The position numbers and the translations under genes are program-made. Below, one piece after another: positions 1,625-57,565 of a stretch of DNA of 64,000 nucleotides (position 1 is its first letter; every line of letters starts with the position of its first letter). Source of the stretch: Escherichia coli. GTDB lineage: Bacteria; Pseudomonadota; Gammaproteobacteria; Enterobacterales; Enterobacteriaceae. The notes beneath the pieces are model-generated. The model was not told where the DNA came from, made no database searches, and saw only the letters and a program-made list of their open reading frames with translations. Location: NCBI RefSeq assembly GCF_011045215.1, contig NZ_CP049202.1; one strand, 5' to 3'.

Positions 1625-4600
1625 TCAGTCTCCGCCCAGGGTTTTCTCTTTCTGCAGGTCACGAACCATATCCCGCTCCATCTGCTGCAGTCGCTCCTGC
1701 AGCAGATTTTCCCGGGCAACCTCCCGGACCGCTTCCCGCACCCGTTGTGGTTCACGCAGTACACTCTCCGGCAGCGCGGCTTCCCGTTCAGTTATGGCAG
1801 CCCGGTCACGCTCCTGCCCGGCAATCTCCCTGACAGCCTGCTCTGTTTTGCCATCCGGCAGGTCAGGTTTGTTCTCTGCCATTTTACGGACAATTTCATC
1901 TGCGCGACGTTCCGTTTCACGGCGGATGGCCTCTTCAGCCTGCCGCTGTGCCAGTACCTCTGCCGTGACCGGTTCGCCATTTCCGGCCCCCGGCTGGACG
2001 CTGTTGTCCGGAATATCTCCCCACACGCGACCACCGGTGATGGCACCGGGATTCCACGGGCGACCTTCACCGGCAATTCTCACCACCACACCGCTGTCAG
2101 GATTATCACGAGCAATCCGGACGCCATCCTGCATGTTATCAGCCAGCAGACTCTCTCCGTTACGGCTGCCCTGCAGGGCCACGAACTGCGCATCTCCGCT
2201 GCCTTTCACCCGGCCTTCACCGCTGAATCCCCGCAGCCCGTTTCCGTCATCCGTAGTCAGTGGGTTCAGCCAGATACCGGCGGACTTGCCGTTACGGTCA
2301 AAAGCCGGCAGTGCCACATACGGCTGCGGATATTTGCGCCCCGGTGCAATAAACCGTGCAGGACTGTCTCCCCCGGCAAGTCCCGCCTGACGGAGAACGG
2401 CACGCCCTGCCGCCACGTCCCGCAGTTCCCGTGCCGTACTGAACAGTCGCTCTGCATTCATGACCTCCCGGTCAGCTTTCGGCTCCAGCACATCGTGGGC
2501 AGTCCCTTTCTGTACGGCATTGTTGATGGCATCCGTCCAGCCCTGACGGTCATCAGTGTACACCTGCACATGCTGCTTCATACGCGACAGGGCAACGTAG
2601 GCTGACTCAAAGCCGGCCATCTGTTTCCGGCCACCTTCCGTGCCTTCAAGCGCGATGGCAAAGGTTTCACTCGCCCCCTGTGCACCGTGGGCAGTGATGG
2701 CATAGGCCAGGTCAATATGTTGTTCTGCCTGCTCCTGACCGGGGCGAATCACCCGGGTCTGCAGTCCGTCAGAAAGCGTGACACTGTCACCGGAAACCGC
2801 CGTCACCGTCCAGACGCTGTTGGCCACATAGCCGCGCTCCCGGTCACTCTTCGTGAAGCGCATCCGGTCACCGGTCCCCACCCGGATGGTGTCCGGGGTG
2901 TACAGTGTGACACCTTCAGCCACCGCCTCCCGGGGCGAAATCAGCCGCGTGTTACCTTCCGCATCCTGCAGGGTTATCAGCCCGTCACCCTTACTGATAC
3001 CGGCAATCCGGTGATACACATTATCCACCAGGACAAGTGCGTCCCGATGTGTCTCCCAGGTGGAGAGACGACGCAACTCCCCGTCGCGTATATTCGCTGT
3101 GTTCAGGACAGGCACCATGACCTGCTCTTTTCCCAGCTCACCGGCCTTTTCCCGTGCATCATGAATCATGCTGTTCAGTACGCGCCGGTCCTCATTCAGA
3201 TGCGTGACAATCAGCGTCTGCTCCCGTGCTTCCGGCGTCCTGCCGGTATAATCGCGGACAATGGCTTCATACAGTGTCATGGGAATATCCGGAAAAGCCT
3301 CACCTTTCAGCATCGCCTTCTGCTGCGCTTCTGCCAGTTTCGCTTCCTGGCTGTGACTGAACTCCGTCACGGAGTGCTCCGGTACCCATGCGCCCTCCTG
3401 ACGTGGCACCTGAGACGGTTTCACACTCTCAAGCCCGGACAGTGCCCTTTCCACATCCCGGTTAATCAGGCTGTATACCGCCTCCCGCAGCTCCGGCGTC
3501 TGACGCACAATCTCCTTCATGATGGCCACATCGGCAGCACTGCGCGTCTGCTGGAGACGGAAAGGCTGACCGGGCGCGATGGCCTGCAGCTGGTCCGTGT
3601 CACCACTGGCCACGGCACGACCACCACCGGCCGCAATCAGGGCGTATGCCCGTGCCATGTCGGTATTGCCCACCATTGAGCTCTCATCGAGCAGGAACAG
3701 CGTGTTGCTGAAATCCGGCGTTTCTCCGCTGCGCTGCTGCAGCTGCGTGTCATGCAGAAAGGACGCCAGTGTCTGTGCATCCACGCCAGCGCTGCGCATC
3801 TCCCCGACCGCACGGTGCGTGGGCCCCAGCCCCACGACACGGGGACGCTCACTCTCCGGCAGCATGTTCACGGCTGACATCACCGCCCGGAACTGTGTGG
3901 TCTTACCCACACCGGCATAACCCTGCACCACCGTGAAGCGGTCAGAGGTTTCCAGTATCATGCGGGTGGCGGCACGTTGCCCCGACGTCAGTTTCTCCAT
4001 AAGTTCGCCAGGTACTCTCTCCATCAGCGGCGTGACAGCCTCCTTACCTTCGAGAATATGGCGAATAATGCTTTTTTCAGCCTCATATGACGCACGGGAA
4101 ACCAGCAGGTCTGTGCCATAACCTTTTGCCACATCCACATGCAGTAAATCACCGCGTTTTATCTGTGCATCGATTTCCCGCCCCAGGTCAGCAAAACTGG
4201 TTCCTTCTGCAGCAAACGACTTTGCCTCTGTCAGCAGGTCCACATGGCTGAAGGCCAGGTTTTTACTTTCCACCACCGGAAGGGCCAGATGAATGGCCTG
4301 CTGTGCCGGCGTGTGAAGTGCGGACTTCTGATGACTGATAGCGGTTTCCAGCGATGTCTCACCGGCCCGCGCCTTTATCTGCTCAGAAACCACCGTAAAG
4401 GAGGGATGGCGGGCAAGTTTTTCCGCAGTACGGGTTTCATCCAGTGAGGAATACAGCCGGACATCACGACCGCTGCGGGCCAGACCGTTCAGGGTGGCGT
4501 TGTCCATTGCCATCTGTGTGACGGAGGCAAAAACCTTCGCACTGTCGCTGACGGAATGCCCGGGCGTTTCCACCCAGCCGTTCTCCAGCTTCAGTGCCGT

Positions 4601-6895
4601 GAACGGTGAATCAGCCACAGGCAGGGTGGCCGGTTCAGCCCGCCCCGGCACAACAACCGTCATCGCATCTTCACTGACGGATGCCACCTGCAGGCGGTCA
4701 CCGCCGGAGACGCGGAGTCCGGGGATTTGTCCCGTCACCCTCAGACGCTCGCCGTCTGCCACCGGCATTTTTTCCGGCCGGAACAGCGACCAGCTGCTGT
4801 CCAGAGAAGAAATACGCACCACCTGCGTTTCACCCTGCGCATCCCGCAGGGTCAGGCTGTGACTCTGCGCCGTCACCCGGTCTATCACATAGCGGTCATG
4901 ACTGCGTGTCTCCGGGTTCCACTGCTCCATCACCATCCCCGGGCGGTACATATCCCGCAGATAACGGCTCCGGCTGTCCAGCCAGACCGGTGACAGGGCG
5001 GTCATGGTTACTTCCGGGTGTCCGAGCACGCCCTGTGTTTTCAGCTCACTGCGAATGGCCTGTGTCAGTATGGCCTGTTCCCGTACCCCGCTGACCTGTG
5101 CCACGCTCTCTTCTCCGGCTTTCACGCTGGCCGCAAAATCTCCTGCCAGCCGGGCATAGCGGACATTACGGTCCGGTTCACTGATGATGGTGGCCGGTCG
5201 CTGTTCTCCCCCCAGCCAGCGATATGTGTTCACCCCGGCATCCTTCATGGCCATCAGCGCACTGCCTGTACCGGTTCGCTGCCCGCTGTCGGTTATCAGG
5301 ACCTGTACGTTATGACGTGCGGCACCGTCCAGCAGGGTTAACGTCTCTTTCAGGGAGAGTTTTTCGCCCTGGTCAACGATAACAGTACTGCCCGGCGTGA
5401 AGGCCATGCCTTCCAGCAACTGACGACGTCCGGTTATCAGCTCACCGGACAGCCGTTCATCCTGCTTCAGGTTCATCTGCGAGCGACGGTCAGCAGCGAT
5501 AATCTGCACTTCCCGCCCCTGCTCCCGGGCCATCATGACCAGTTCAGCCACCCGCTCACGCTGCCCGGCTGCACCGCCCTGCCCGGACACAATGGCCAGC
5601 GACGGACGGTCCTGTGCCAGAACACTGACCGCATCGCTGTAACCAGCCGTCCGGGGGACACTTTTCTCCGGATGTACGGTCACCCGGTTCTGTTTCATGA
5701 TGTCACGACTGAGTGCCCGGACGGACAGCTCATCGAGCACATGAATTCCTGATGTGAACAGCCCCTTCTCACGGTCGAGGGGGATGAGTTGCTCACGACT
5801 GATGGCCTCATCGATACCGGCGCGTGCCCGTTCAATCACACCATTTTCCGGCGGCAGTATACCGACCGTTCTGGCCAGCACGTCCGTATACGTGAACTGC
5901 ACTTTTCGTTCACTTAATCCGGCAATGGCCTGTGTCACCGCCTGCTGCACATCCGGCCCCTCCAGTGAAACAGCCCCGGGCGCCTGCGTGCGGGTCTCTG
6001 CCCGTTGCTCCGCCGCGTCACGATACGCCCGGATATCGAACCCGGTTTCCTTCAGTGTCTGCATCCACTCGGTCATTTTGATTTCAGGATCGACGTGCTG
6101 TTTGGATTTTCGCGTATCCAGTGCTGCCACATCCCGGGATTTCAGCGAGGCGTCTTCCCCGACGGCCTCCCTGATAGCCTGCGAACGACTGGAAAAGGCC
6201 TCCACCGGTACGCCCGGCATCTCCCACATCCCGTGCTTACCGACCACTTCGGTTTCATAGCCCAGCGCCTCAACCTGCTCTTTCAGCTTTTCCCGGTAGA
6301 GTCTGCCAAAGGCAATCTGATTAGCGTACACATTCTCAATGAACCCTGTTTTTCCCACTTTGTCACTGCTCAGTGTCTTCCACTCGCCGTTATGCTGTGT
6401 AACATTGGCCACCACCGCATGCGTGTGTAACTGTGGTTCCTGATCGCGACTGGTGTCGTGATTAAAAAGCGCCATCACCAGATTACCGGTCAGCACCGTT
6501 TCTGACTGTCCGTCCGTCATAACCCGTGTGGAGGCCAGCGCCTCCACCTGACGGACAGCAAAATCCACGGCCTGGTTATGTGCATCAATAAGACGTTTAT
6601 CACCGCCTAACATGGCCATCACGGAGACACTTTTGGGGGCGGAGAAGGTCAGGTCGTAGCCGGGACGATGCTTATTACTGCCATCCTGCATGCGGCTTAA
6701 ATCCGCTCCGTCCGGCAGCCTGCCCTCCAGAAGACGGGTAAAAACATCCTTATCGACACTGCCCTGCAGCCCCAGCTGTTCAGCCCCCCTGCCGGCCCAG
6801 CGTTCTCCCATGCTGCCCAGCACATAGTAATTATCCTTGTCGGTATAATAGTTACCGGCACTTCCGGCCGATCTGACCTGCGCGATACTCATCAT
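1625..6895 (-). CDS. traI: TraI relaxase/DNA helicase I (1756 aa)
   Basis: 1756 aa as in F TraI; N-terminal relaxase domain and C-terminal helicase region with Walker A (GYAGVGKT); ATG overlaps traD stop. Confidence 0.97.
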   Translation of the reverse strand: MMSIAQVRSAGSAGNYYTDKDNYYVLGSMGERWAGRGAEQLGLQGSVDKDVFTRLLEGRLPDGADLSRMQDGSNKHRPGYDLTFSAPKSVSVMAMLGGDKRLIDAHNQAVDFAVRQVEALASTRVMTDGQSETVLTGNLVMALFNHDTSRDQEPQLHTHAVVANVTQHNGEWKTLSSDKVGKTGFIENVYANQIAFGRLYREKLKEQVEALGYETEVVGKHGMWEMPGVPVEAFSSRSQAIREAVGEDASLKSRDVAALDTRKSKQHVDPEIKMTEWMQTLKETGFDIRAYRDAAEQRAETRTQAPGAVSLEGPDVQQAVTQAIAGLSERKVQFTYTDVLARTVGILPPENGVIERARAGIDEAISREQLIPLDREKGLFTSGIHVLDELSVRALSRDIMKQNRVTVHPEKSVPRTAGYSDAVSVLAQDRPSLAIVSGQGGAAGQRERVAELVMMAREQGREVQIIAADRRSQMNLKQDERLSGELITGRRQLLEGMAFTPGSTVIVDQGEKLSLKETLTLLDGAARHNVQVLITDSGQRTGTGSALMAMKDAGVNTYRWLGGEQRPATIISEPDRNVRYARLAGDFAASVKAGEESVAQVSGVREQAILTQAIRSELKTQGVLGHPEVTMTALSPVWLDSRSRYLRDMYRPGMVMEQWNPETRSHDRYVIDRVTAQSHSLTLRDAQGETQVVRISSLDSSWSLFRPEKMPVADGERLRVTGQIPGLRVSGGDRLQVASVSEDAMTVVVPGRAEPATLPVADSPFTALKLENGWVETPGHSVSDSAKVFASVTQMAMDNATLNGLARSGRDVRLYSSLDETRTAEKLARHPSFTVVSEQIKARAGETSLETAISHQKSALHTPAQQAIHLALPVVESKNLAFSHVDLLTEAKSFAAEGTSFADLGREIDAQIKRGDLLHVDVAKGYGTDLLVSRASYEAEKSIIRHILEGKEAVTPLMERVPGELMEKLTSGQRAATRMILETSDRFTVVQGYAGVGKTTQFRAVMSAVNMLPESERPRVVGLGPTHRAVGEMRSAGVDAQTLASFLHDTQLQQRSGETPDFSNTLFLLDESSMVGNTDMARAYALIAAGGGRAVASGDTDQLQAIAPGQPFRLQQTRSAADVAIMKEIVRQTPELREAVYSLINRDVERALSGLESVKPSQVPRQEGAWVPEHSVTEFSHSQEAKLAEAQQKAMLKGEAFPDIPMTLYEAIVRDYTGRTPEAREQTLIVTHLNEDRRVLNSMIHDAREKAGELGKEQVMVPVLNTANIRDGELRRLSTWETHRDALVLVDNVYHRIAGISKGDGLITLQDAEGNTRLISPREAVAEGVTLYTPDTIRVGTGDRMRFTKSDRERGYVANSVWTVTAVSGDSVTLSDGLQTRVIRPGQEQAEQHIDLAYAITAHGAQGASETFAIALEGTEGGRKQMAGFESAYVALSRMKQHVQVYTDDRQGWTDAINNAVQKGTAHDVLEPKADREVMNAERLFSTARELRDVAAGRAVLRQAGLAGGDSPARFIAPGRKYPQPYVALPAFDRNGKSAGIWLNPLTTDDGNGLRGFSGEGRVKGSGDAQFVALQGSRNGESLLADNMQDGVRIARDNPDSGVVVRIAGEGRPWNPGAITGGRVWGDIPDNSVQPGAGNGEPVTAEVLAQRQAEEAIRRETERRADEIVRKMAENKPDLPDGKTEQAVREIAGQERDRAAITEREAALPESVLREPQRVREAVREVARENLLQERLQQMERDMVRDLQKEKTLGGD

Positions 6896-17718: not shown

Positions 17719-18462
17719 TTAAAAATTGGGTTTAAAATCTTCAGAAACGTTCAGGAACTGTTTTGCCAGGTCGTCCTGCGAAATAAAGCCGTATGATAAC
17801 GGGCGAACACTGCCCTGTTTCGGGTCAACCAGCATCATGGCCGGGAAATATTTCACGCCGAGGCGCTGCGCCTGCCCCTGGTCAGTCCGGGAATCCGGCA
17901 ACAGCGGATTAATCACGCCATCCACGGAAACGGGAATAACACTCAGACCATACGTATCCCGGAAGCCATTAATGACCTGCGCCAGCTGCCCGTCGATAGG
18001 GTCCTGACCCCGGTAAAAAAACATGATGCCGTAATGCTCTGCCAGTCTGGCAATAGCCTGTCGCTGCTGCGCCTGGTCTGCCGCCAGCTGGTTCCGGACC
18101 GTGCCGTTGTAATGGCTGTACTGCAGGTTATAGTCCAGTTCGGGATGCGCCAGCATGGCCTTTCTGGCGCTCATGGTGAAAAGCCCGGCCTGCTGAGTCC
18201 AGTAATTCTGCAGCCGGAAATATTTCACAAAATTATCCACGCCGGGATACAGAATGGCTTCGTACAGCGCCCGCTTTGTTGCCGTCTGCAGCGCGGCCAG
18301 TTTCTGCATAATATCCGGCTCCTGACGGGGGGCTGCAGGTACAGGTTTATTTTCTTTTTCCTTTGGACTTATTTTCTCGTTATACCACTGCCAGCCTGCA
18401 TCTTTCCCTGACGCCGGAAAAATAAAGCAGCAGAGTAACAGTGGCAGTAATGCTTTATTCAT
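17719..18462 (-). CDS. traF: TraF periplasmic thioredoxin-fold pilus assembly protein (247 aa from MNKALLPL)
   Basis: Signal peptide; size and position as F TraF; track ORF has a 10-residue in-frame extension. Confidence 0.8.
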   Translation of the reverse strand: MNKALLPLLLCCFIFPASGKDAGWQWYNEKISPKEKENKPVPAAPRQEPDIMQKLAALQTATKRALYEAILYPGVDNFVKYFRLQNYWTQQAGLFTMSARKAMLAHPELDYNLQYSHYNGTVRNQLAADQAQQRQAIARLAEHYGIMFFYRGQDPIDGQLAQVINGFRDTYGLSVIPVSVDGVINPLLPDSRTDQGQAQRLGVKYFPAMMLVDPKQGSVRPLSYGFISQDDLAKQFLNVSEDFKPNF

Positions 18463-37900: not shown

Positions 37901-38000
37901 AACTTGTTTTTGCGTGGGGTGTGGTGCTTTTGGTGGTGAGAACCACCAACCTGTTGAGCCTTTTTGTGGAGTGGGTTAAATTATTTACGGATAAAGTCAC
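37900..38000 (+). other. oriT core; F-type nic site in GCGTGGGGTGT/GGTGCT (nick at about 37922/37923), plus-strand is the transferred strand
   Basis: Sequence TTTTTGCGTGGGGTGTGGTGCTTTTGGTGGTGAGAACCACCAACCTGTTGAGCC matches the F oriT nic region as remembered, including the GGTGGTGAGAACCACC inverted repeat. Confidence 0.8.
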
Positions 38001-38013
38001 CAGAGGTGGAAAA

Positions 38014-38523
38014 ATGAAAAAATGGATGTTAGCCATCTGCCTGATGTTTATAAATGAGATCTGCCATGCCAATGATTGCTTTGATCTTTCAGGCCGGGAT
38101 TACAAAATAGATCCTGATTTACTGAGAGCAATATCATGGAAAGAATCCCGTTACCGGGTTAATGCCATCGGTATTAATCCGGTAACGGGATATGGCAGCG
38201 GACTGATGCAGGTAGATTCCCAGCATTTTAACGAACTGGCCCGCTATGGAATTAATCCGGAACATCTGACAACAGATCCCTGCATGAACATTTATACCGG
38301 TGCTTATTATCTGGCAATAGCCTTTAAAAAATGGGGCGTCTCCTGGGAGGCCGTTGGTGCATACAATGCCGGATTCAGGAAGACCGAACGCCAGAACCAG
38401 AGACGTCTTGCCTACGCATCAGATGTTTACCGGATTTATACCGGGATAAAAAGCAGTAAAGGTATCCGGATTCCGGCCACGAAGAAATCACTTCCGGAAA
38501 TTAACAGCGTGCAGAACAATTAA
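38014..38523 (+). CDS. orf169 / gene X-type lytic transglycosylase (169 aa, signal peptide)
   Basis: Signal peptide and lytic-transglycosylase-like core; first leading-region gene beside oriT as in F; ATG with GAGGTGG RBS. Confidence 0.85.
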
Positions 38524-38768
38524 TCTTACAGACATTGTCAGATACCGGTTATGCCGCAAAAGCGGCATGGAAGGCCACACACAAAAATATCATATGAGTG
38601 ACAATACTGACTGGCCGAAGCCCCGCGAAGCGGGAACCCATCTTATATATACCCGGTAACTGCGCAGCCTCCTGCCAGACCATTTTTCGCGGGCACAATA
38701 TTTACAGACAACCGGAAAGCCAGTTGATGAAATTGAGGTATATCAGACGACACAGCGATGCCGAAGAA

Positions 38769-38821
38769 TGATAATATAAGTAAAGCCCCGAAAATTTTTC
38801 GGGGCTTTACTTATATTATCA
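38769..38821. terminator. Perfect 26-bp inverted repeat with 1-nt spacer; GC stem flanked by A/T runs, probable bidirectional terminator between convergent genes
   Basis: TGATAATATAAGTAAAGCCCCGAAAA-T-TTTTCGGGGCTTTACTTATATTATCA read directly from the sequence. Confidence 0.6.
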
Positions 38822-38941
38822 TGACTTCCACTTTCTGAACTGTTCGGCAATCACCCATAACGCCTTGTTGATTCTTATATCACCATCAATACCTGTAATG
38901 GCTCTTGTCCTAGTATTTTTCCCGGAGGCACTTTGCCCCGA

Positions 38942-39640
38942 TCATCCACCTTTTATCATATTCTCCTGAACCCGCTGCCAGGTTGTCCAGAGATCGTTCT
39001 GTTTATCCTCCCAACGATGGGGAGTAATTATCTGTTCAGGCGTCACTGGCGTTTTATTTTCATCTTCATACCTGACCATCAGTGCAGCTCTGCTAAATAA
39101 ATGTTGCTCGTCACTGTTAAGATGAATTTCTTTCATCGCCTCCATATTATCAGTGACCTTATCAAAGATACCGAGTACTTCATACGCTCCCTCGATAACC
39201 TGCTCGACAATATCACCTTTATGTGGAACGCGGATTTCGCCAAAATTATTTCCGCACACCAGGCCATTTGTGCAGACAAAACGAAAAATTCCGGGGATCA
39301 TCTGATAACTGGATGAACCATCATGTGAATTAAGCAGGATAATTTCAGGAACTTCCTGCCCGTTAATATGCCCTTCCCTGCGAAGACGTAACATATGTTT
39401 ACTGTATTCGCGACGTCCCAAATCACGAACCCGACTCTGACAGGCAAAGAATGGCTGGAAACCTTCATCACGTAACTTATTGATGATATTGATTGTTGGA
39501 ATATACGTATAACGTTCACTCCGGGACTCATGTTTATCACCGGAAAATACCGAAGGCACGAACTGCATTAATTCATCATCCGTTAAAGGACGTTCACGGC
39601 GGATGGAATTATACCGACCAAAACGGGAAGCTAATCGCAT
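38942..39640 (-). CDS. DUF932-family leading-region protein (orf273-like), possibly C-terminally truncated
   Basis: MRLASRFGRYNSIRRERPLTDDELMQF... resembles the conserved DUF932 protein next to orf169 in F-like leading regions; ATG at 39640 with AGGAG RBS; appears shorter than remembered homologues. Confidence 0.5.
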   Translation of the reverse strand: MRLASRFGRYNSIRRERPLTDDELMQFVPSVFSGDKHESRSERYTYIPTINIINKLRDEGFQPFFACQSRVRDLGRREYSKHMLRLRREGHINGQEVPEIILLNSHDGSSSYQMIPGIFRFVCTNGLVCGNNFGEIRVPHKGDIVEQVIEGAYEVLGIFDKVTDNMEAMKEIHLNSDEQHLFSRAALMVRYEDENKTPVTPEQIITPHRWEDKQNDLWTTWQRVQENMIKGG

Positions 39641-39758
39641 AACAGCTACTCCTTTATGAAAGAATAAATTTAATAAAAAATTTTTCCGCTTAATATCATC
39701 CCTCCTGGTCACCATTAACAAGATTGCAACAATCAGGAGGAATATTCATCACATCCAG

Positions 39759-40057: not shown

Positions 40058-40620
40058 TCTCTCTGGTTTTCAGCCCCCATCATCTTTTGAGTTTCGGGAG
40101 CCGCGGTTTTGACGTTTTGCGGGGACCTGCCTTTTGTTCCCTCCGGTATTCACCATCATCTTTTTGAGAACCTTCGCCGCAAGGGGCATCACTGCCACGG
40201 CCGGAAACGACTGTCCGGGGGCAGACCGCAAAAGTTTTTGCCTGCTTCTGGGCAAAAACTTTTGCGGGATGTGCATTTCACCCCTGGACTGGCGGAGACG
40301 GTTGTGGCTGTATCAGCCCCCGGCGACAGGGGATTAAACAGGTGAATGGCACCGGACAGAACAACGGGCAGGGACCCGCCGCAGCGACGTGAAGCGCGGT
40401 TTGCGAAACGGCGTTGCCCCTTACATCCCGGCGGCCTTTTGCCGGGATGCCGGGAGCGCAGGCCACGGCGCGACAGAGGCGGCGCGACCGGAACGGTCGC
40501 TGCAAGCCCGGGGTTTCGCGTCAGGGATGGAAGCCCGCCAGGGCGGAGACAGCTTCGCTGGCTCCGTTCACGACAGCCCGCCCCGCCAGGGGGACGCCCG
40601 GAAAAGGCATAAGCAGGAGA
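40058..40620. repeat. Frpo/ssi-like GC-rich structured element, copy 1 of a roughly 0.55-kb direct repeat
   Basis: Near-identical sequence recurs at ~45456..46000; contains internal inverted repeats (CCGCAAAAGTTTTTGCC...GGCAAAAACTTTTGCGG); lies upstream of a minus-strand leading gene. Confidence 0.55.
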
Positions 40621-40943
40621 ACAACAAAACAGACAATAATCAGGGCAGCAGTAATCAGAGTCAGAACAGGAGGAAAAAGAGAATAATCAAAGGGAAGGTG
40701 ATGTGATTTCTGACAGGTCATAAACAGAGAAGGCGGGGGAAAAGAACGGGCGCCGCAGGCGCACGTTCATCCCCGTTCCCGGAGGGAAACGGCCTTCCTG
40801 GCAGTCTGGTTGTTCATGCCCGTACAATGCCAGCAAGGAGAAAGGGGCCACCGGCGAACCAGCAGCCCCTTTATAAAGGCGCTTCAGTGCAGTCAGACCA
40901 GCATCAGCCCTGAAAAGGCGGGCCTGCGCCCGCCTCCAGGTTG

Positions 40944-45455: not shown

Positions 45456-46000
45456 TTGATGTTTTCAGCCCCCATCATCTTTTGAGTTTCAGGAGCCGCG
45501 GTTTGACGTTTTGCGGGGACCTGCCTTTTGTTCCCTCCGGTATTCACCATCACCTTTTTGAGAACCTTCGCCGCAAGGGGCATCACTGCCACGGCCGGAA
45601 ACGACTGTCCGGGGGCAGACCGCAAAAGTTTTTGCCTGCTTCTGGGCAAAAACTTTTGCGGGATGTGCATTTCACCCCTGGACTGGCGGAGACGGTTGTG
45701 GCTGTATCAGCCCCCGGCGACAGGGGATTAAACAGGTGAATGGCACCGGACAGAACAACGGGCAGGGCCCCGCCGCAACGACGGAGAGCGCGTGCGCGAA
45801 ACGGCGTTGCCCCTTACATCCCGGCGGCCTTTTGTCGGGATGCCGGGAGCGCAGGCCACGGCGCGACAGAGGCGGCGCGACCGGAACGGTCGCTGCAAGC
45901 CAGGGTTTCGCGTCAGGGATAGAAGCCCGCCAGGGCGGAGACAGCTCCGCTGGCTCCGTTCACGACAGCCCGCCCCGCCCCGCCAGGGGGACGCCCGGAA
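45456..46000. repeat. Frpo/ssi-like GC-rich structured element, copy 2 (direct repeat of ~40058..40620), immediately upstream of ssb
   Basis: Near-identical to copy 1 by eye with scattered substitutions and small indels. Confidence 0.55.
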
Positions 46001-46019
46001 AAGCCATAAACAGGAGAGG

Positions 46020-46075
46020 AACGGAAAGAAGAGGAAGAGGAAAAAGAAAAAGAAGAAGAAGAAGAAGAAGAAGAA
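46020..46075. repeat. Purine-rich microsatellite (GAA/AGA)n adjoining repeat copy 2
   Basis: GGAAGAGGAAAAAGAAAAAGAAGAAGAAGAAGAAGAAGAACAA read directly; absent from copy 1. Confidence 0.7.
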
Positions 46076-46252
46076 CAATAACAAGCACGGTAACCACAGA
46101 AAAATAACATCAGAAAAAAACATTCCGGACACATCACAAACAGGAAGGGTAACGGGCGACGCGTCAGCGTGGCCCGCTTCCCTTCCGGCAGGCGTCAGCC
46201 TGCCAGGGGTTTTCGCGCGGGCTGACAGGCGGCCTCCACCGCCTGCCCTGTA

Positions 46253-46444: not shown

Positions 46445-46863
46445 TACCCGTTCTCCCCGTCCAGCGCCTGACGCATCACCCGCATAATCTCACGTTCTTC
46501 CCTGACAAATGCGTCACCGTCGCCCCCGTTCTCGCTCCCGACAGCATGGAGGCGATAAATTTCACTACCAGCCATCACCATCACTTTTTCCAGCAGCACC
46601 GCAGGGACTGTTACAAGACGGTTTACGCGCTTTTCCTCCATCAGTTCATTGACAATATCGGAAACAACTCTGTCACATGCGCCATATACAAAAGCATCGT
46701 CCAGCCGCTGCATGACGGTTTCCAGCTCATCGTCTGTCAGACTCCAGTCCTGGGCTATGTGACGCACATCCCCACGGGTCAGCACCACGGCAAAAACGCA
46801 TTCACTGTCCGGCACGTCTGTATCCAGTACATCGCGAATGATTTCTTTAACAGTACAGTACAT
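46444..46863 (-). CDS. Hypothetical leading-region protein (139 aa), apparent paralogue of the ORF at 48567..49034
   Basis: Acidic protein; shares a ...RxVTVPAxLLxxV... segment with the 155-aa ORF. Confidence 0.5.
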   Translation of the reverse strand: MYCTVKEIIRDVLDTDVPDSECVFAVVLTRGDVRHIAQDWSLTDDELETVMQRLDDAFVYGACDRVVSDIVNELMEEKRVNRLVTVPAVLLEKVMVMAGSEIYRLHAVGSENGGDGDAFVREEREIMRVMRQALDGENG

Positions 46864-46909
46864 GTTCTCGTCTCCTTTACAGGGGCGGCATTGCCGCCCC
46901 GTCCGTTAA

Positions 46910-47335
46910 TCAGTCCAGTGCCGCGTAAATCGCGTTGCATTCAGGGTGAAATTCGATGTGACGCCACAACTGCGCATCACGCATCCGGTAAAGCTGAGTC
47001 AGCCCCGCATCACCGCTGTCGTGGTACAGCCACAACTGACGGTTAATCACAAGGGAAGTCAGAATGACACCTGCGGCATCAGCACTCACAGTACGGTCAA
47101 ACCAGTTTGCACCGTTCACCATGTGGAAACGGTCGCCATCCGGCATCATGTAACCGCCACCGTCCGGCAGGCGGATGAAGTGCCAGAATCCGCCTTCATA
47201 TTCCGGCATCATTTTTTTCGCCAGCGCGTATACAGACGCTTCGGCATACAGAAAATCCTGGCCAAACAGGTAAGGCAGAAAAGACAGACGGTCGCACTCT
47301 TCAACGTTCAGAGTGACAGATTTCGCATATTGCAT
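46910..47335 (-). CDS. klcA: KlcA/ArdB-family antirestriction protein (141 aa)
   Basis: Size and conserved-looking segments ([13 protein letters not shown]...[20 protein letters not shown]...[15 protein letters not shown]) recalled from ArdB/KlcA-type proteins. Confidence 0.65.
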
Positions 47336-47751
47336 GATGTTTTCCTCCGTTGTTCACATATTCCGCGACACCGGGCGGTGCCGTGCCTCCATAAAAGCCG
47401 GGCGATAAGGCGGGGATGCAGGGGCGCAAGGGAAGCCGCAGCCTGACGCACACGGCTGACGGGAGTTGGAGGGTGAGACCGCGAAATCTGAGCGGGTGAA
47501 CGACCGGAAAATCACGGCAGACGGGAAGAAAGGACCGGGTGACCGCAGCGGCAAAGCGTACCCTTGCATCCCTGCCAGCCCGGCTAAGATGGAGGCACGG
47601 CACAGCCCGCACACGACGCTGAGGCCACATAACTGAAAAACCACAAGGCCATGCCCTGCATGGCCGGGTAAAGCGGAGCCGGCGGCGACTTCCTTTGTGC
47701 TCTGTCCGGGGACCGGCAGGAAAAAGGCGGGGATTTACCCCGCCAACGTCA

Positions 47752-48522
47752 TCATTTCCGGATTTTTGCCAGGGCATCCGCCATGCTGCGGATTTCGGCC
47801 CGGGCTTCCCGGACCACCTCCCGCAGAACACCACGGTCAAACCAGCGGCGGGGCGGTTCATCCGGTATACGCAGCACATCGCAGGCCAGCCCACTGGACA
47901 GGATATGCTCAATACAATCGCTGACCAGGTACATTTCCACCGACGAAAAACGTGCTCCCCGGTTCACGATGGCATCGAGCACCACGGGCAGGTTTTCGTC
48001 ATCTTCATCGAGCCAGCAGGGGTGATCGCTTTCCTTCACAACCAGACGAAAGCGGCGCGTCTGGCGGGTCAGCAACGTCTGACCGGTGGTGGTCAGCGCC
48101 GCCCGGATACGCCGCGCATCGTCTGCCACCTGGTAACAGATGCTTCGTATTGCATCGCGCACCGCCGCAAGTACAGCCCTGATTTCGTCTTCTGCCAGCC
48201 ACTCACCGGCATACGGGAAAGACACCTGCGTTCCGTCTGCCGGAAGTACCGGCAGCGACTGCCACTGACTGCCGGACAGAACAAGTTCCGCCCCGGTTCC
48301 GGTCAGTTTCTGAATGGCAGAGGCCAGGTGCGGCGGCAGTACGCCGCCGTGACGGTTGATAAGTAACGTCGCCAGCCGGGGCGTATCCAGCCGCACGTAA
48401 ATGCTGATCCAGCCCGGATGGTTCGGATTTCGCTGGTCAACATCCGTCTCTTCCGGCCAGCCCTGCGCCAGCAGCAGGTTACGGGCGTGGCGACAAATCA
48501 GTGCATTCAGCGTTTCGTTCAT
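47752..48522 (-). CDS. Hypothetical leading-region protein (256 aa)
   Basis: Long ORF with plausible coding character; no recognised motif. Confidence 0.5.
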
Positions 48523-49236: not shown

Positions 49237-49920
49237 TTACGCAGCCTCCGGCATAAACCAGTCATCATTCGCGGCCCCCTGCTGCATGGCCCGTTGCACG
49301 GCGGCAAGGCGTTGCTGCCCGGCACGGTGATACTGCTCAAGCAGCTCGATACCGATATACCGGCGTCCGGACTGGAGGGCGGCGACGCAGGTTGAGCCGC
49401 TGCCTGCAAACGGGTCCAGCACAATTGCGTTCGGGTGTGTGAAGCTCTCAATCAGCGGTTGCAGGCTGGTAACGGGCTTTTCCGTCGGGTGATGGCGATT
49501 GCCCGAATATTTCCAGCCCAGCACGTCCGGCGGCGGGTTTTGTGGCAGACGTGGACGGCCTTTTGCCAGGATGTAGGCGCATTCGTGGCGATAGCCCACA
49601 TATGCGGCCTTCGATGTGTAGTTTTTGGTGAAGACCAGGTGACCAACAACGCTGAATCCCGCATTTTTCCAGGCGGCAATAAAGCGATCGACGCGGTTCC
49701 AGCCATAGAAGCTCACCATTAACGCGTCTTTTTTCAGCACGCGGTACATCTCATTACAGGCCGGTTGCAGCCATTCATCGGTTTTATCTCCGGCGATGGT
49801 GCGCCCGGAACGGTCACGAAAACCGACGAGATATGGCGGGTCAGTTAATATGAAATCAATGGCGTTATCAGGGATACGCGTCATAACATCGATGCAGTTA
49901 CCAAGAACAAAACGGGACAT
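49237..49920 (-). CDS. Orphan N6-adenine (DPPY-motif) DNA methyltransferase (227 aa)
   Basis: DPPY motif (ILTDPPYLVGF), ParB-N/MTase-like layout; no adjacent restriction endonuclease gene recognised. Confidence 0.85.
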   Translation of the reverse strand: MSRFVLGNCIDVMTRIPDNAIDFILTDPPYLVGFRDRSGRTIAGDKTDEWLQPACNEMYRVLKKDALMVSFYGWNRVDRFIAAWKNAGFSVVGHLVFTKNYTSKAAYVGYRHECAYILAKGRPRLPQNPPPDVLGWKYSGNRHHPTEKPVTSLQPLIESFTHPNAIVLDPFAGSGSTCVAALQSGRRYIGIELLEQYHRAGQQRLAAVQRAMQQGAANDDWFMPEAA

Positions 49921-50267
49921 AATAACGCTCCTTCTCTTACAGAGGGCACCGGGAGGGCACCCCTGTGGTGCCCGTTCCCCGCTGCCTGTGGGCTGTTCAC
50001 CGCGTCCGGTAACGGGTCAGGCCGACCGTGGAATATCGCAGCCGTCGTCTTTTTGACGGCGAGAATATGCCGCGAAAGCGGCTTGAAGGGCGTTCATCAG
50101 AAAAGGGCGACAGGCTGGCGTACACTGTCACCGGTACCAGCCGGGAGCAGTAAAAGCGCCCGTCCCGTGCCCGCCGGACGCGGGACACTGACCACAGGCA
50201 GCGTTCCTGCCGCGCCGCGTCAGCCGGCGCAGTAAAAAGAGGAGCACGGCGACATCCTTTGTCGGAA

Positions 50268-50300
50268 AAGAAACGGGCGGTTGCCCGCCCGTCTCCGTCA
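50268..50300 (-). terminator. Rho-independent terminator-like hairpin after the 308-aa gene
   Basis: On the minus strand, GGGCGGGCAACCGCCCG stem-loop followed by a T-rich run. Confidence 0.5.
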
Positions 50301-50304
50301 TACT

Positions 50305-51231
50305 TCATCCGCCATAATGCGCCACATTGTCGACTATCCACGCAGGTCCGGTGACTTCCGGCAGCTCATCGTCATCTGTCGGGGAAGAGCATTCCAGTTC
50401 CCCCCACAGCACATCAACGAGCTCTCCGCGCTCATACAACTGCCAGCCACAGAAATTGCAGCCCTGTTCGGCGTACCAGTGCTCCAGCGTGCAGCCGAAA
50501 CGGCGGCTTAATTCTGCAACAACGTTGCTTTCCGGCTGACACCACGGCGTGTCGAAATCCACCTGAATGAAGTTGTCTCCCTGACGGCTGATATTCACCT
50601 CATACCTCACAGGCCACTTCACGCCATACTGTTCCGTATACCAGTGATACGCAGAAGGAACACCGTTCAGAACACCACCGTTAAAGCCATTCACTTCAAC
50701 ATCCAGGCGGGTGGGCAGAACCGTCAGCAGGTCAAACGGCATGGTTTTTTCCGGCAGTACATTGTCACACAGACGGTTCCACCACACCGATACATCCTCG
50801 TTACTCCAGAAGCCACACCAGTCACCTCTTTTGGCGGTGAAATGCACGGTGATGGTTTCTCTGACCTCATCCGGTAATCCTTCCCAGCGACGCTGGCCAG
50901 TACCACTCTGCAGCCAGAGTTCATGCAGCATCAGGCAGTTTTGCTCATCCAGCAGTACACCGTCCTGCAGGTATGTCAGCCAGCGGGTGAACGCGATATT
51001 CTCCGGCGATACAACACCACGTCCGGCAGCCGTCAGTCCGGGGCACGGTTCAAACTGCACATCTTCAGTGGTCTGCAGAAGTCCGGCACTTCCGGCCAGA
51101 AATAGCTGAATACCTTCATTTGTGGCGCGGCGATAAAGCGGTATGACTGCACCGCTGGCCAGTCGTTTAATCTCAGCGATCTGTGCCGGTTCACCAGAAA
51201 AATACATACGATTCGAGCACCAGTTTAGCAT
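50305..51231 (-). CDS. Hypothetical conserved leading-region protein (308 aa from ATG with AGGAG RBS)
   Basis: Long ORF; the track start is GTG but the internal ATG at 51231 has a strong RBS. Confidence 0.55.
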   Translation of the reverse strand: MLNWCSNRMYFSGEPAQIAEIKRLASGAVIPLYRRATNEGIQLFLAGSAGLLQTTEDVQFEPCPGLTAAGRGVVSPENIAFTRWLTYLQDGVLLDEQNCLMLHELWLQSGTGQRRWEGLPDEVRETITVHFTAKRGDWCGFWSNEDVSVWWNRLCDNVLPEKTMPFDLLTVLPTRLDVEVNGFNGGVLNGVPSAYHWYTEQYGVKWPVRYEVNISRQGDNFIQVDFDTPWCQPESNVVAELSRRFGCTLEHWYAEQGCNFCGWQLYERGELVDVLWGELECSSPTDDDELPEVTGPAWIVDNVAHYGG

Positions 51232-51583
51232 GGGAATTCTCCTCTCACATGCGGCCTCCATCAGGCCGTGCCGCACCTGTAACCGGGCGACCGCATACGA
51301 ATGCAGGTGCGGCCCCGAAGCCGCAGCGCGTGGAGGAGGAACGACGAAACGTGACCGGGTGAGGAGGCCTGCGACAGCGACACACTTGCATCGGATGCAG
51401 CCCGGTTAACGTGCCGGCACGGCCTGGGTAACCAGGTATTTTGTCCACAGAACCGTGCACAAAATGCTGTGGATAAGCTGGACACAACAGTCCACAGCAG
51501 GCATACAGCCACACTCTCAGAGAATTGAGCGTTTTTTAGTCACAATAATGACATTTGACTGTGTGTGGATTCAGTTATTAGAA

Positions 51584-56229: not shown

Positions 56230-57039
56230 TTATGCGTGTCTGTTTTTCAGCATTGTGACCGCATCGGACTCAGGCATCGAAAACTGCACCCGGTGCCGTG
56301 CAGCCACATCCAGCGCAAACACCTTCGTGTAGACCTCCGTTGAGCTGATGGACTTATGCCCCATCAGGCTCTGCAGGACCTTCAGTGGTATACCGGCATA
56401 CAGCATGTGCATCGCATGGGAATGGCGGAACGTATGTGGCGTGACCGGGACAGAGAACGTCACACCGTCAGTAGCAGCGGCGGCAACCGCCTCCCCAATC
56501 CAGGTCCTGACCGTTCTGTCCGTCACTTCCCAGATCCGCACTTTCTCTGTCCTGCCTGTTCGTTTATTACGCCGTTCCAGAGGAATTTTCAGTGTTGCCA
56601 CCATCGTCTGCAGCTGACTGACGTACCAGGAGTCGGAGAGCGGAACCAGCCGGTGAGTCTGCTGTCCGGCAGGCGTTCTTCCTGCCGTCCTGGCGGCTTT
56701 TTCGGTCCGCTGCTTCAGAGTGGCCAGCTGCACAAACGGATACGGAGGCGCAAGCGAAAAATCCCCCCGCGTCAGCGCCAGTGCTTCATTAATGCGCGCA
56801 CCGGTGTTCCACAGTGTGGCCAGCAGCATCTTGCGGCGCAGATCCGGGACGTAATGGAGCAGGGCACTCACTTCCGGAGCCAGCAGATATTTCGGCAGTT
56901 CATCATGAACCATCGACATCTGGCGAAGTGCCAGAGCTGCCGGATAATCAATGACAACAGGAAGTTGTGGAGACTGTCCGGCAGAATACACTGCCGGTAC
57001 CCTGGCTGCAGACTGGCTGTGTATAACGGAGCCTGACAT
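56230..57039 (-). CDS. resD: ResD-type tyrosine site-specific recombinase (269 aa)
   Basis: C-terminal tyrosine-recombinase motifs (HTFRHSHA...LMGHKSISSTEVYT); directly downstream of ccdB as in F. Confidence 0.85.
   Translation of the reverse strand: MSGSVIHSQSAARVPAVYSAGQSPQLPVVIDYPAALALRQMSMVHDELPKYLLAPEVSALLHYVPDLRRKMLLATLWNTGARINEALALTRGDFSLAPPYPFVQLATLKQRTEKAARTAGRTPAGQQTHRLVPLSDSWYVSQLQTMVATLKIPLERRNKRTGRTEKVRIWEVTDRTVRTWIGEAVAAAATDGVTFSVPVTPHTFRHSHAMHMLYAGIPLKVLQSLMGHKSISSTEVYTKVFALDVAARHRVQFSMPESDAVTMLKNRHA

Positions 57040-57565
<526 letters not shown>

Follow-up and report, generated by a model that had tools for sequence, protein, structure and literature searches.

A hairpin upstream of klcA/ardB in the leading region of an F-like plasmid is very probably a copy of the class 2 single-stranded DNA promoter

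The window, by which we mean the whole stretch of 64,000 nucleotides that was analysed (Escherichia coli, contig NZ_CP049202.1), is an F-like conjugative plasmid. Its tra operon lies on the minus strand and includes an open reading frame (ORF) of the size of traI (1625–6895), and an F-type nic motif, GGGTGT/GGTGCTTTT (the slash marks the nick), which we take to be the nick sequence of F itself, occupies positions 37917–37931 of the plus strand. To the right of nic, the genes of the leading region (psiA, psiB, a ParB-like gene, ssb, a DUF1380 gene, klcA/ardB, a gene encoding a 256-aa protein, a further DUF1380 gene, a DNA methylase gene and a DUF1281 gene) are all encoded by the minus strand. 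Given a nic motif on the plus strand and leading-region genes exclusively on the minus strand, it is the plus strand that is transferred and that is the template for klcA and for the other leading genes. Close to nic there is also a perfect palindrome with 27-nt arms and a 1-nt centre (ATGATAATATAAGTAAAGCCCCGAAAA / TTTTCGGGGCTTTACTTATATTATCAT; 38768–38822); it sits between two convergent ORFs, at 37921–38523 (plus strand) and 38942–39721 (minus strand), the former in the position of F's SLT-domain transglycosylase gene beside oriT, and it looks like a bidirectional terminator.

The element of interest lies between two genes of this leading region. On its left, the anti-restriction gene klcA/ardB (46910–47335, minus strand) encodes a product that matches the Pfam family Antirestrict (PF03230; E = 9e-26), and is the orthologue of yfgB of F, with 94% identity between the two proteins. 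On its right, the gene for the 256-aa protein (47752–48522, minus strand) is by position the orthologue of yffB of F and is the last gene of the upstream operon; the two proteins are 93% identical, and the 256-aa protein has no match in either Pfam or NCBIfam. The spacer between the klcA start at 47335 and the stop of the 256-aa gene at 47752 comprises 416 nt, and is 63% G+C. Just after that stop, a strong intrinsic-terminator-like hairpin on the minus strand (47726–47744; GGCGGGG-TAAAT-CCCCGCC, followed by TTTTT) is the end of the upstream operon. A second, weaker terminator-like hairpin, also on the minus strand (47647–47665), separates the first from a much longer stem-loop. Taken together, these positions define the order of elements in the spacer as operon end, single-stranded DNA (ssDNA) promoter and klcA operon.

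The long stem-loop is an imperfect structure of ~238 nt on the plus strand (47372–47609). An earlier note, made from the letters of this DNA alone, had described nested inverted repeats in the spacer and predicted from them a stem-loop on single-stranded DNA; a repeat search found both repeats again, where that note had placed them. The arms of the outer repeat (47372–47403 and 47578–47609) are 32 nt in length, 88% complementary and 174 nt apart; those of the inner repeat (47409–47424 and 47561–47576) are 16 nt in length, and again 88% complementary. The presence of the inner repeat thus stands as described, and only its register has to be corrected: it pairs GGCGGGGATGCAGGGG (47409–47424) with CCCTTGCATCCCTGCC (47561–47576), some 8 nt off the GCAGGGGCGCAAGGG quoted originally, and this shifted register is preferred because it is adopted in the minimum-energy fold and is backed by covariation. 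When folded as ssDNA, the plus strand of the whole 416-nt spacer yields −105.8 kcal/mol (z = −4.88). The hairpin itself (47360–47625) yields −74.3 kcal/mol (z = −6.41), and none of 200 dinucleotide shuffles is as stable; the plus strand therefore has the stable structure that had been predicted for it.

From the base upwards, the fold consists of helices of 5 and 15 bp, a 3 × 3 internal loop, a helix of 8 bp, a 5 × 1 internal loop, helices of 16 and 3 bp, and an irregular top; the basal stem thus amounts to ~47 bp, interrupted by two internal loops, and G+C makes up 66% of the class 2 stem. The 5' arm (47372–47427) contributes the segments 47372–47376, 47378–47392, 47396–47403, 47409–47424 and 47425–47427, and contains the motif GCCGTG (47380–47385), whereas the 3' arm of the helix map (47556–47609) contains G.CACGGC (47594–47601); both motifs are invariant in the family alignment discussed below. 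The irregular apical part (47428–47555) carries two further invariant motifs, AAGCCGCAG (47433–47441) and CGGGTGA (47536–47542), and a second copy of the latter also lies within the hairpin top (47493–47499).

A family was assembled with an nhmmer profile and MAFFT, giving 19 sequences (alignment A2) from F-like, I-complex, Erwinia, Citrobacter, Enterobacter and Yersinia plasmids, together with a metagenome. The profile found multiple copies, in the window, F, pESBL, an IncK2/Z plasmid, Erwinia persicina, Citrobacter amalonaticus, Enterobacter cloacae and Yersinia ruckeri. The locus-derived copies all have the same orientation, and each abuts the start codon of a minus-strand gene, which encodes KlcA/ArdB, ArdA, a methylase, a DUF1281 protein or a hypothetical protein. 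An apical stretch of ~74 nt is missing from the short members of the family. Relative to these, the E. coli klcA/ardA-type copies have ~50–74 extra nucleotides in the hairpin top (47445–47520 in the window; columns ~123–174 of A2), and this additional stretch holds more GGGTGA repeats (GGAGGGTGAGACCGC, GAGCGGGTGAACG).

The RNAalifold consensus for the 19 sequences has 38 pairs, of which 18 show compensatory changes. The proportion of paired cells is 95.6%, as against 35–40% when the partners are slid by 1–3 columns, and the covariation score is 0.340, as against no more than 0.067 in the slid controls. None of 500 shuffles reaches a score of 0.340, and on four of five measures none reaches the observed values; the 19 sequences are related, so these counts are not to be read as probabilities. 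The apical pair AAGCCGCAG / CGGGTGA behaves differently from its neighbours: it is strictly invariant and shows no covariation. Lying ~55–61 nt upstream of the predicted transcription start, it may be a sequence-specific contact, for example for the RNA polymerase alpha subunit or for a roadblock factor, rather than a plain stem. As a general marker of ssDNA promoters, neither CGGGTGA nor the looser ACVGGTGA is of use: both occur 22 times in the window, mostly inside tra genes, and the idea of a motif common to the different promoter classes was dropped, these motifs being unspecific.

The conserved positions include what appear to be the elements of a promoter, rebuilt within the stem. Both boxes are presented by the 3' arm: a −35-like hexamer, TTGCAT (47564–47569, plus strand), lies inside the 16-bp helix, its TTG being invariant or nearly so in the family (A2 positions T228, T229, which is nearly invariant, and G230), and a −10-like hexamer, TAAGAT (47585–47590, plus strand), follows it, with TAnnnT invariant across the family (A2 positions T249, A250 and T254). 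We infer that these are the exact −35 and −10 hexamers, that the 3' arm acts as the non-template strand, and that the 5' arm, which would be read towards klcA, acts as the template. Within the −10 hexamer, A-A-G (47586–47588) faces A-A-A (47393–47395) in the 3 × 3 internal loop. The positions −11, −10 and −9 are unpaired in, respectively, 15, 18 and 14 of the 19 family members, whereas the flanking helices are ~98% paired; the family thus retains a pre-melted −10 element in which the critical A at −11 is free.

Transcription would start at T47384 of the template arm, which pairs with A47597 of the non-template arm, 7 nt after the −10 hexamer; the corresponding column pair, 59:283, is T:A in all 19 sequences. 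The predicted 5' untranslated leader of klcA (47336–47383, minus strand) would then be ~49 nt in length, counting the start base, and includes a Shine–Dalgarno sequence, GGAGG (47344–47348), 8 nt before the klcA ATG. The two boxes are separated by 15 nt along the non-template arm and by 19 nt along the template arm, and the IncK2/Z copies show the reverse (20 and 15 nt). The mean is ~17 nt; the 15-nt non-template spacer is short for sigma-70, and the value of ~17 arises only when it is averaged with the 19 nt on the template side, where the loop is asymmetric.

A conventional duplex promoter for klcA was set aside: a scan for the sigma-70 consensus found none in the spacer. Moreover, once the DNA is a duplex, the strand truly complementary to the template arm reads TTTTAT rather than TAAGAT, and the TTGCAT/TAAGAT pair would face away from klcA. 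With TTTTAT in place of TAAGAT, and no consensus promoter in the duplex, there is probably a simple reason why activity should be restricted to ssDNA.

Comparison with other plasmids indicates that an element of this kind is already known. The spacer aligns end-to-end with the yffB–yfgB spacer of F (NC_002483.1, 56342–56754), with a mean column identity of 97% (95.4% by blastn), from which it differs by point differences and two 1-nt indels. Across its full 416 nt it shares 95.4% identity with the stretch directly upstream of klcA in pESBL-EA11 (56958–57370), and it shares 93.8% with a stretch upstream of ardA in pESBL. The flanking genes, being orthologous to yffB and yfgB, preserve the synteny with F, and the position is likewise the same: in the leading region, directly upstream of klcA/ardB, and with the transferred strand as the template. 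At least 5,000 plasmid records contain the spacer, mostly with 95–99% identity; the plasmids that carry it are from Escherichia, Klebsiella, Salmonella and Shigella.

Several recent studies bear on these orthologues. Working with the IncI plasmid pESBL, Wen et al. (2025, NAR; PMC12672017) searched for hairpins without recourse to homology, and used 5'RACE on donor-depleted transconjugants to locate six transcription starts. They distinguish class 1 (Frpo/ssi1-3), class 2 (the klcA and ardA elements, which are mutually similar) and class 3 (methylase); the class 2 promoters were induced in transconjugants (zygotic induction), and conservation of classes 2 and 3 in F was also noted (PMC12672017). 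Published accounts of the pESBL and F orthologues report a transcription start within the hairpin, and activity from ssDNA with silence of the duplex. The F copy between yffB and yfgB, termed ssp2, drives the ArdB homologue: its deletion is reported to abolish production of this protein, with ssp3 partly substituting (bioRxiv 10.64898/2026.01.09.698686). Additionally, the ssp2 stem-loop stalls complementary-strand synthesis until it is resolved by UvrD, the stalled 3' end lying at the end of the stem (bioRxiv 10.64898/2026.01.09.698686); by homology, the corresponding roadblock end in the window would be near 47609–47610. The same element was found independently and named Frpo3 (bioRxiv 10.1101/2025.04.03.647016).

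The hairpin is therefore very probably one of the class 2 ssDNA promoters known from conjugative plasmids of enterobacteria, including F-like and I-complex plasmids (ssp2/Frpo3 in F, and the klcA promoter of pESBL). The hairpin is real and was correctly read in the first place; it is also already known, and so is not a new discovery. The suggestion of an independent ssDNA promoter upstream of the klcA-like gene is borne out in so far as the spacer is orthologous to the published class 2 element; promoter activity at this locus is attributed from the papers on these ~95%-identical orthologues, and, by the same orthology, klcA/ardB is the gene that the element would drive.

The earlier note had left open whether the site might serve for priming instead. 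Of the rival explanations, the least improbable is that the hairpin acts chiefly as a single-strand initiation (ssi) signal that primes or regulates complementary-strand synthesis in the recipient, klcA being transcribed from elsewhere. Frpo-type elements were indeed discovered in their role as ssi signals, with transcripts capable of priming DNA synthesis (PMC7690428; bioRxiv 10.64898/2026.01.09.698686); moreover, the F orthologue does influence complementary-strand synthesis (bioRxiv 10.64898/2026.01.09.698686). However, the reported effect of ssp2 is one of stalling, the early conversion events being attributed to the ssp1/Frpo promoters, and the reported loss of the ArdB homologue on deletion of ssp2 ties the element to expression of the gene. 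Additionally, the invariant TTG/TAnnnT spacing, and the presence of a start codon at every locus-derived copy, fit a promoter. We consider a primarily initiating role improbable; of the original alternatives, the promoter is retained, and published accounts of ssp2 give its second activity as a block to complementary-strand synthesis and not as priming.

Still less probable is an explanation at the level of RNA, according to which the structure would act in an mRNA reading through from the upstream operon, as a terminator, a processing site or a translational regulator of klcA. The minus strand likewise gives a stable fold (−96.1 kcal/mol, z = −5.2), and there are terminator-like hairpins close by on that strand. 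However, the pattern of pairing across the family points to the other strand: G.T pairs, which the mRNA would carry as A.C mismatches, occupy 26 cells, as against 3 cells for A.C (a test that is biased, as the consensus was derived by folding the plus strand), and in each of the 19 sequences DNA parameters give the plus strand a more stable fold than its complement. The excess of G.T pairs and the greater stability of the plus strand argue that the fold has been selected on the transferred strand and not on the mRNA, with the same proviso regarding the origin of the consensus. Furthermore, the conserved TAnnnT and TTG are on the plus strand, little read-through is to be expected past the two terminators between the upstream gene and the hairpin, and a search of 46800–48000 against Rfam, on both strands, returned no match at E ≤ 1.

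There is scarcely any prospect that the interval is simply coding. A 203-aa open frame on the minus strand (47301–47912) spans the spacer, in both the window and F one of the sense frames runs through the spacer without a stop, and a hypothetical protein is annotated over the spacer in some database records. However, the frame overlaps both neighbouring genes, passes through the two terminator-like hairpins, and its translation has no match in Pfam or NCBIfam; the two 1-nt indels relative to F shift it for ~236 nt, and in the homologues of the spacer from the IncK2/Z, Citrobacter and Erwinia plasmids, stops interrupt every sense frame. Long open frames are likely to arise here by chance because the spacer is 63% G+C, a composition that by itself favours them. 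The ORF is thus not a gene, in agreement with the opinion originally expressed, and the 'hypothetical protein' calls over such hairpins in some records are probably spurious. Equally negligible is a functionless, MITE-like remnant of a mobile element with terminal inverted repeats, as although there are dispersed copies, two to three per plasmid, with inverted-repeat ends, the locus-derived copies all face the same way with respect to the transferred strand, each beside a start codon, compensatory changes maintain pairing along the whole stem and not at its ends alone, the internal promoter-like motifs are invariant, and no target-site duplications were noticed in those sequences that were read.

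Returning to the class 2 ssDNA promoter, the following sequence of events may be proposed, for which the fold, the selection on the plus strand, the conserved hexamers with their bubble and the orthology derive from the present analysis. During conjugation, the plus strand would enter the recipient 5'-first from the nick at ~37922/37923, and ~9.5 kb later the segment 47372–47609 would be exposed. This would fold back on itself to give the ~47-bp basal stem with its two internal loops and irregular top, such that the stem mimics a duplex promoter: the 3' arm would present TTGCAT as the −35 element and, 15 nt further on, TAAGAT as the −10 element, with the middle of the latter, including the key A at −11, held in the mismatch bubble and, hence, already melted. 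Host sigma-70 RNA polymerase would then bind and use the 5' arm as its template, starting near T47384; here, the precise hexamers, the start site and the choice of template arm are our predictions. Transcription would leave the stem and proceed into klcA/ardB and the genes behind it, such that the anti-restriction protein would be made before the plasmid becomes double-stranded. Once the complementary strand had been made, there would be no hairpin, and with TTTTAT as the complement of the template arm, the promoter would be gone. Finally, a stall at the base of the stem until UvrD unwinds it, as described for F, would lengthen the single-stranded window; this roadblock, like the promoter activity and the zygotic induction, is taken from the published work.

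The significance of such an element is that it allows the plasmid to produce an anti-restriction protein within minutes of its arrival, ahead of its conversion to the double-stranded form; the class 2 element also holds the leading region single-stranded for longer (bioRxiv 10.64898/2026.01.09.698686). With at least 5,000 database plasmids carrying it, the element is relevant to the spread of resistance plasmids. The recognition of a published class of regulatory DNA from the sequence alone serves, moreover, as a positive control.

Counting both Frpo repeats, the leading region of the window has five hairpin elements that fall into three sequence classes. The class 1, Frpo-type elements are direct repeats of ~560 nt, at 40066–40625 and 45461–46022, with a mutual identity of ~96–98% and 89–93% identity to Frpo1 and Frpo2 of F. 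Immediately beyond the right end of the second repeat, the transferred strand has a purine-only tract with (GAA)9 (~46008–46076), which gives rise to spurious poly-Lys and poly-Phe ORFs there. Like class 2, the Frpo/ssi1-3 elements (Masai & Arai 1997; Frpo1 and Frpo2 of F, ssi1-3 of ColIb-P9) lie in the leading region in the same orientation, and their hairpin, too, forms on the transferred strand, where it reconstitutes −35 and −10 boxes for the RNA polymerase of the host. However, there is no detectable sequence similarity between the two classes and their composition differs; as had been noted at the outset, the class 2 hairpin is unlike the two Frpo-like repeats, with no match to them either by blastn (word size 7) or with the family nhmmer profile. 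The two classes also differ in their reported effects on DNA synthesis, which class 1 transcripts prime and ssp2 blocks. The class 2 element would thus work like Frpo, yet is no sequence member of the Frpo family.

A further long hairpin at 49921–50304 (arms 49980–50009 and 50174–50203; ssDNA fold z = −7.92) is directly upstream of the DNA methylase gene (49237–49920), is 96.8% identical to the sequence upstream of the methylase gene of F, and corresponds by its position to the published class 3 promoter, ssp3. Over this hairpin too, there is a RefSeq-derived 'hypothetical protein' (L001:11662-11973; in F, L002:4785-5090) that is probably spurious. Class 3 (ssp3, upstream of the M.EcoGIX-type methyltransferase) resembles class 2 in being a hairpin promoter of the same leading region that is unrelated in sequence to the others; it differs from class 2 in that sequence, and has a reported strength that is similar, with no roadblock activity.

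The remaining element is a shorter hairpin of class 2 type (51243–51458) that abuts the DUF1281 ORF (50305–51276). It keeps the invariant motifs and has TTGCAT-15-TAACGT, and its fold is only modestly above chance (z = −2.09). Both F (L002:3617-3854; there, DUF1281 is broken up into two ORFs) and pESBL (L009:3242-3469) have this DUF1281-upstream copy as well, and it is not among the four ssDNA promoters of F or the six of pESBL in the available part of the published descriptions. The leading region may, therefore, have one ssDNA-driven unit more than the four (F) or six (pESBL) described. The joint proposition that there is an unreported third class 2 paralogue, that of DUF1281, acting as an extra ssDNA-driven unit, and that AAGCCGCAG/CGGGTGA is a protein contact, is a tentative one, and rather unlikely to hold in both its parts. 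The promoter modules have also been shuffled between genes across plasmids: in Erwinia and Citrobacter plasmids (L004:12005-12241 and L005:11132-11348), the methylase gene is preceded by a hairpin of class 2 type and not of class 3, and the IncK2/Z plasmid has two class 3 copies (L003:16597-16973 and 17906-18278), one before the methylase gene and one before DUF1281.

The RNA-polymerase-dependent single-strand origins of ssoA type, from rolling-circle plasmids, offer an analogy: there too, a folded single strand is recognized by host RNA polymerase, the product being a short primer for lagging-strand synthesis, with no protein-coding operon driven. The ssoA-type origins have no sequence relation to class 2. 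The analogy is also mentioned in PMC7690428. Closer relatives were listed by Samuel et al. (2024; PMC11541004), who give a metagenomic homologue as candidate Frpo' 4 (supplementary file 4) and two more distant homologues as Frpo* 1 and Frpo* 3; in that paper, all three are computational candidates only. These sequences, from an insect-gut metagenome contig (OFEI01000013.1), align with the class 2 element over the whole hairpin and have the same invariant motifs; being diverged, they supply compensatory changes, for example from C:G to A:T in the basal helix. The closest of all are the class 2 elements of F and pESBL themselves, which the element in the window resembles in sequence, in flanking genes, in strand relative to oriT and in forming a long stem-loop, and there is nothing functional that sets the window copy apart from that of F.
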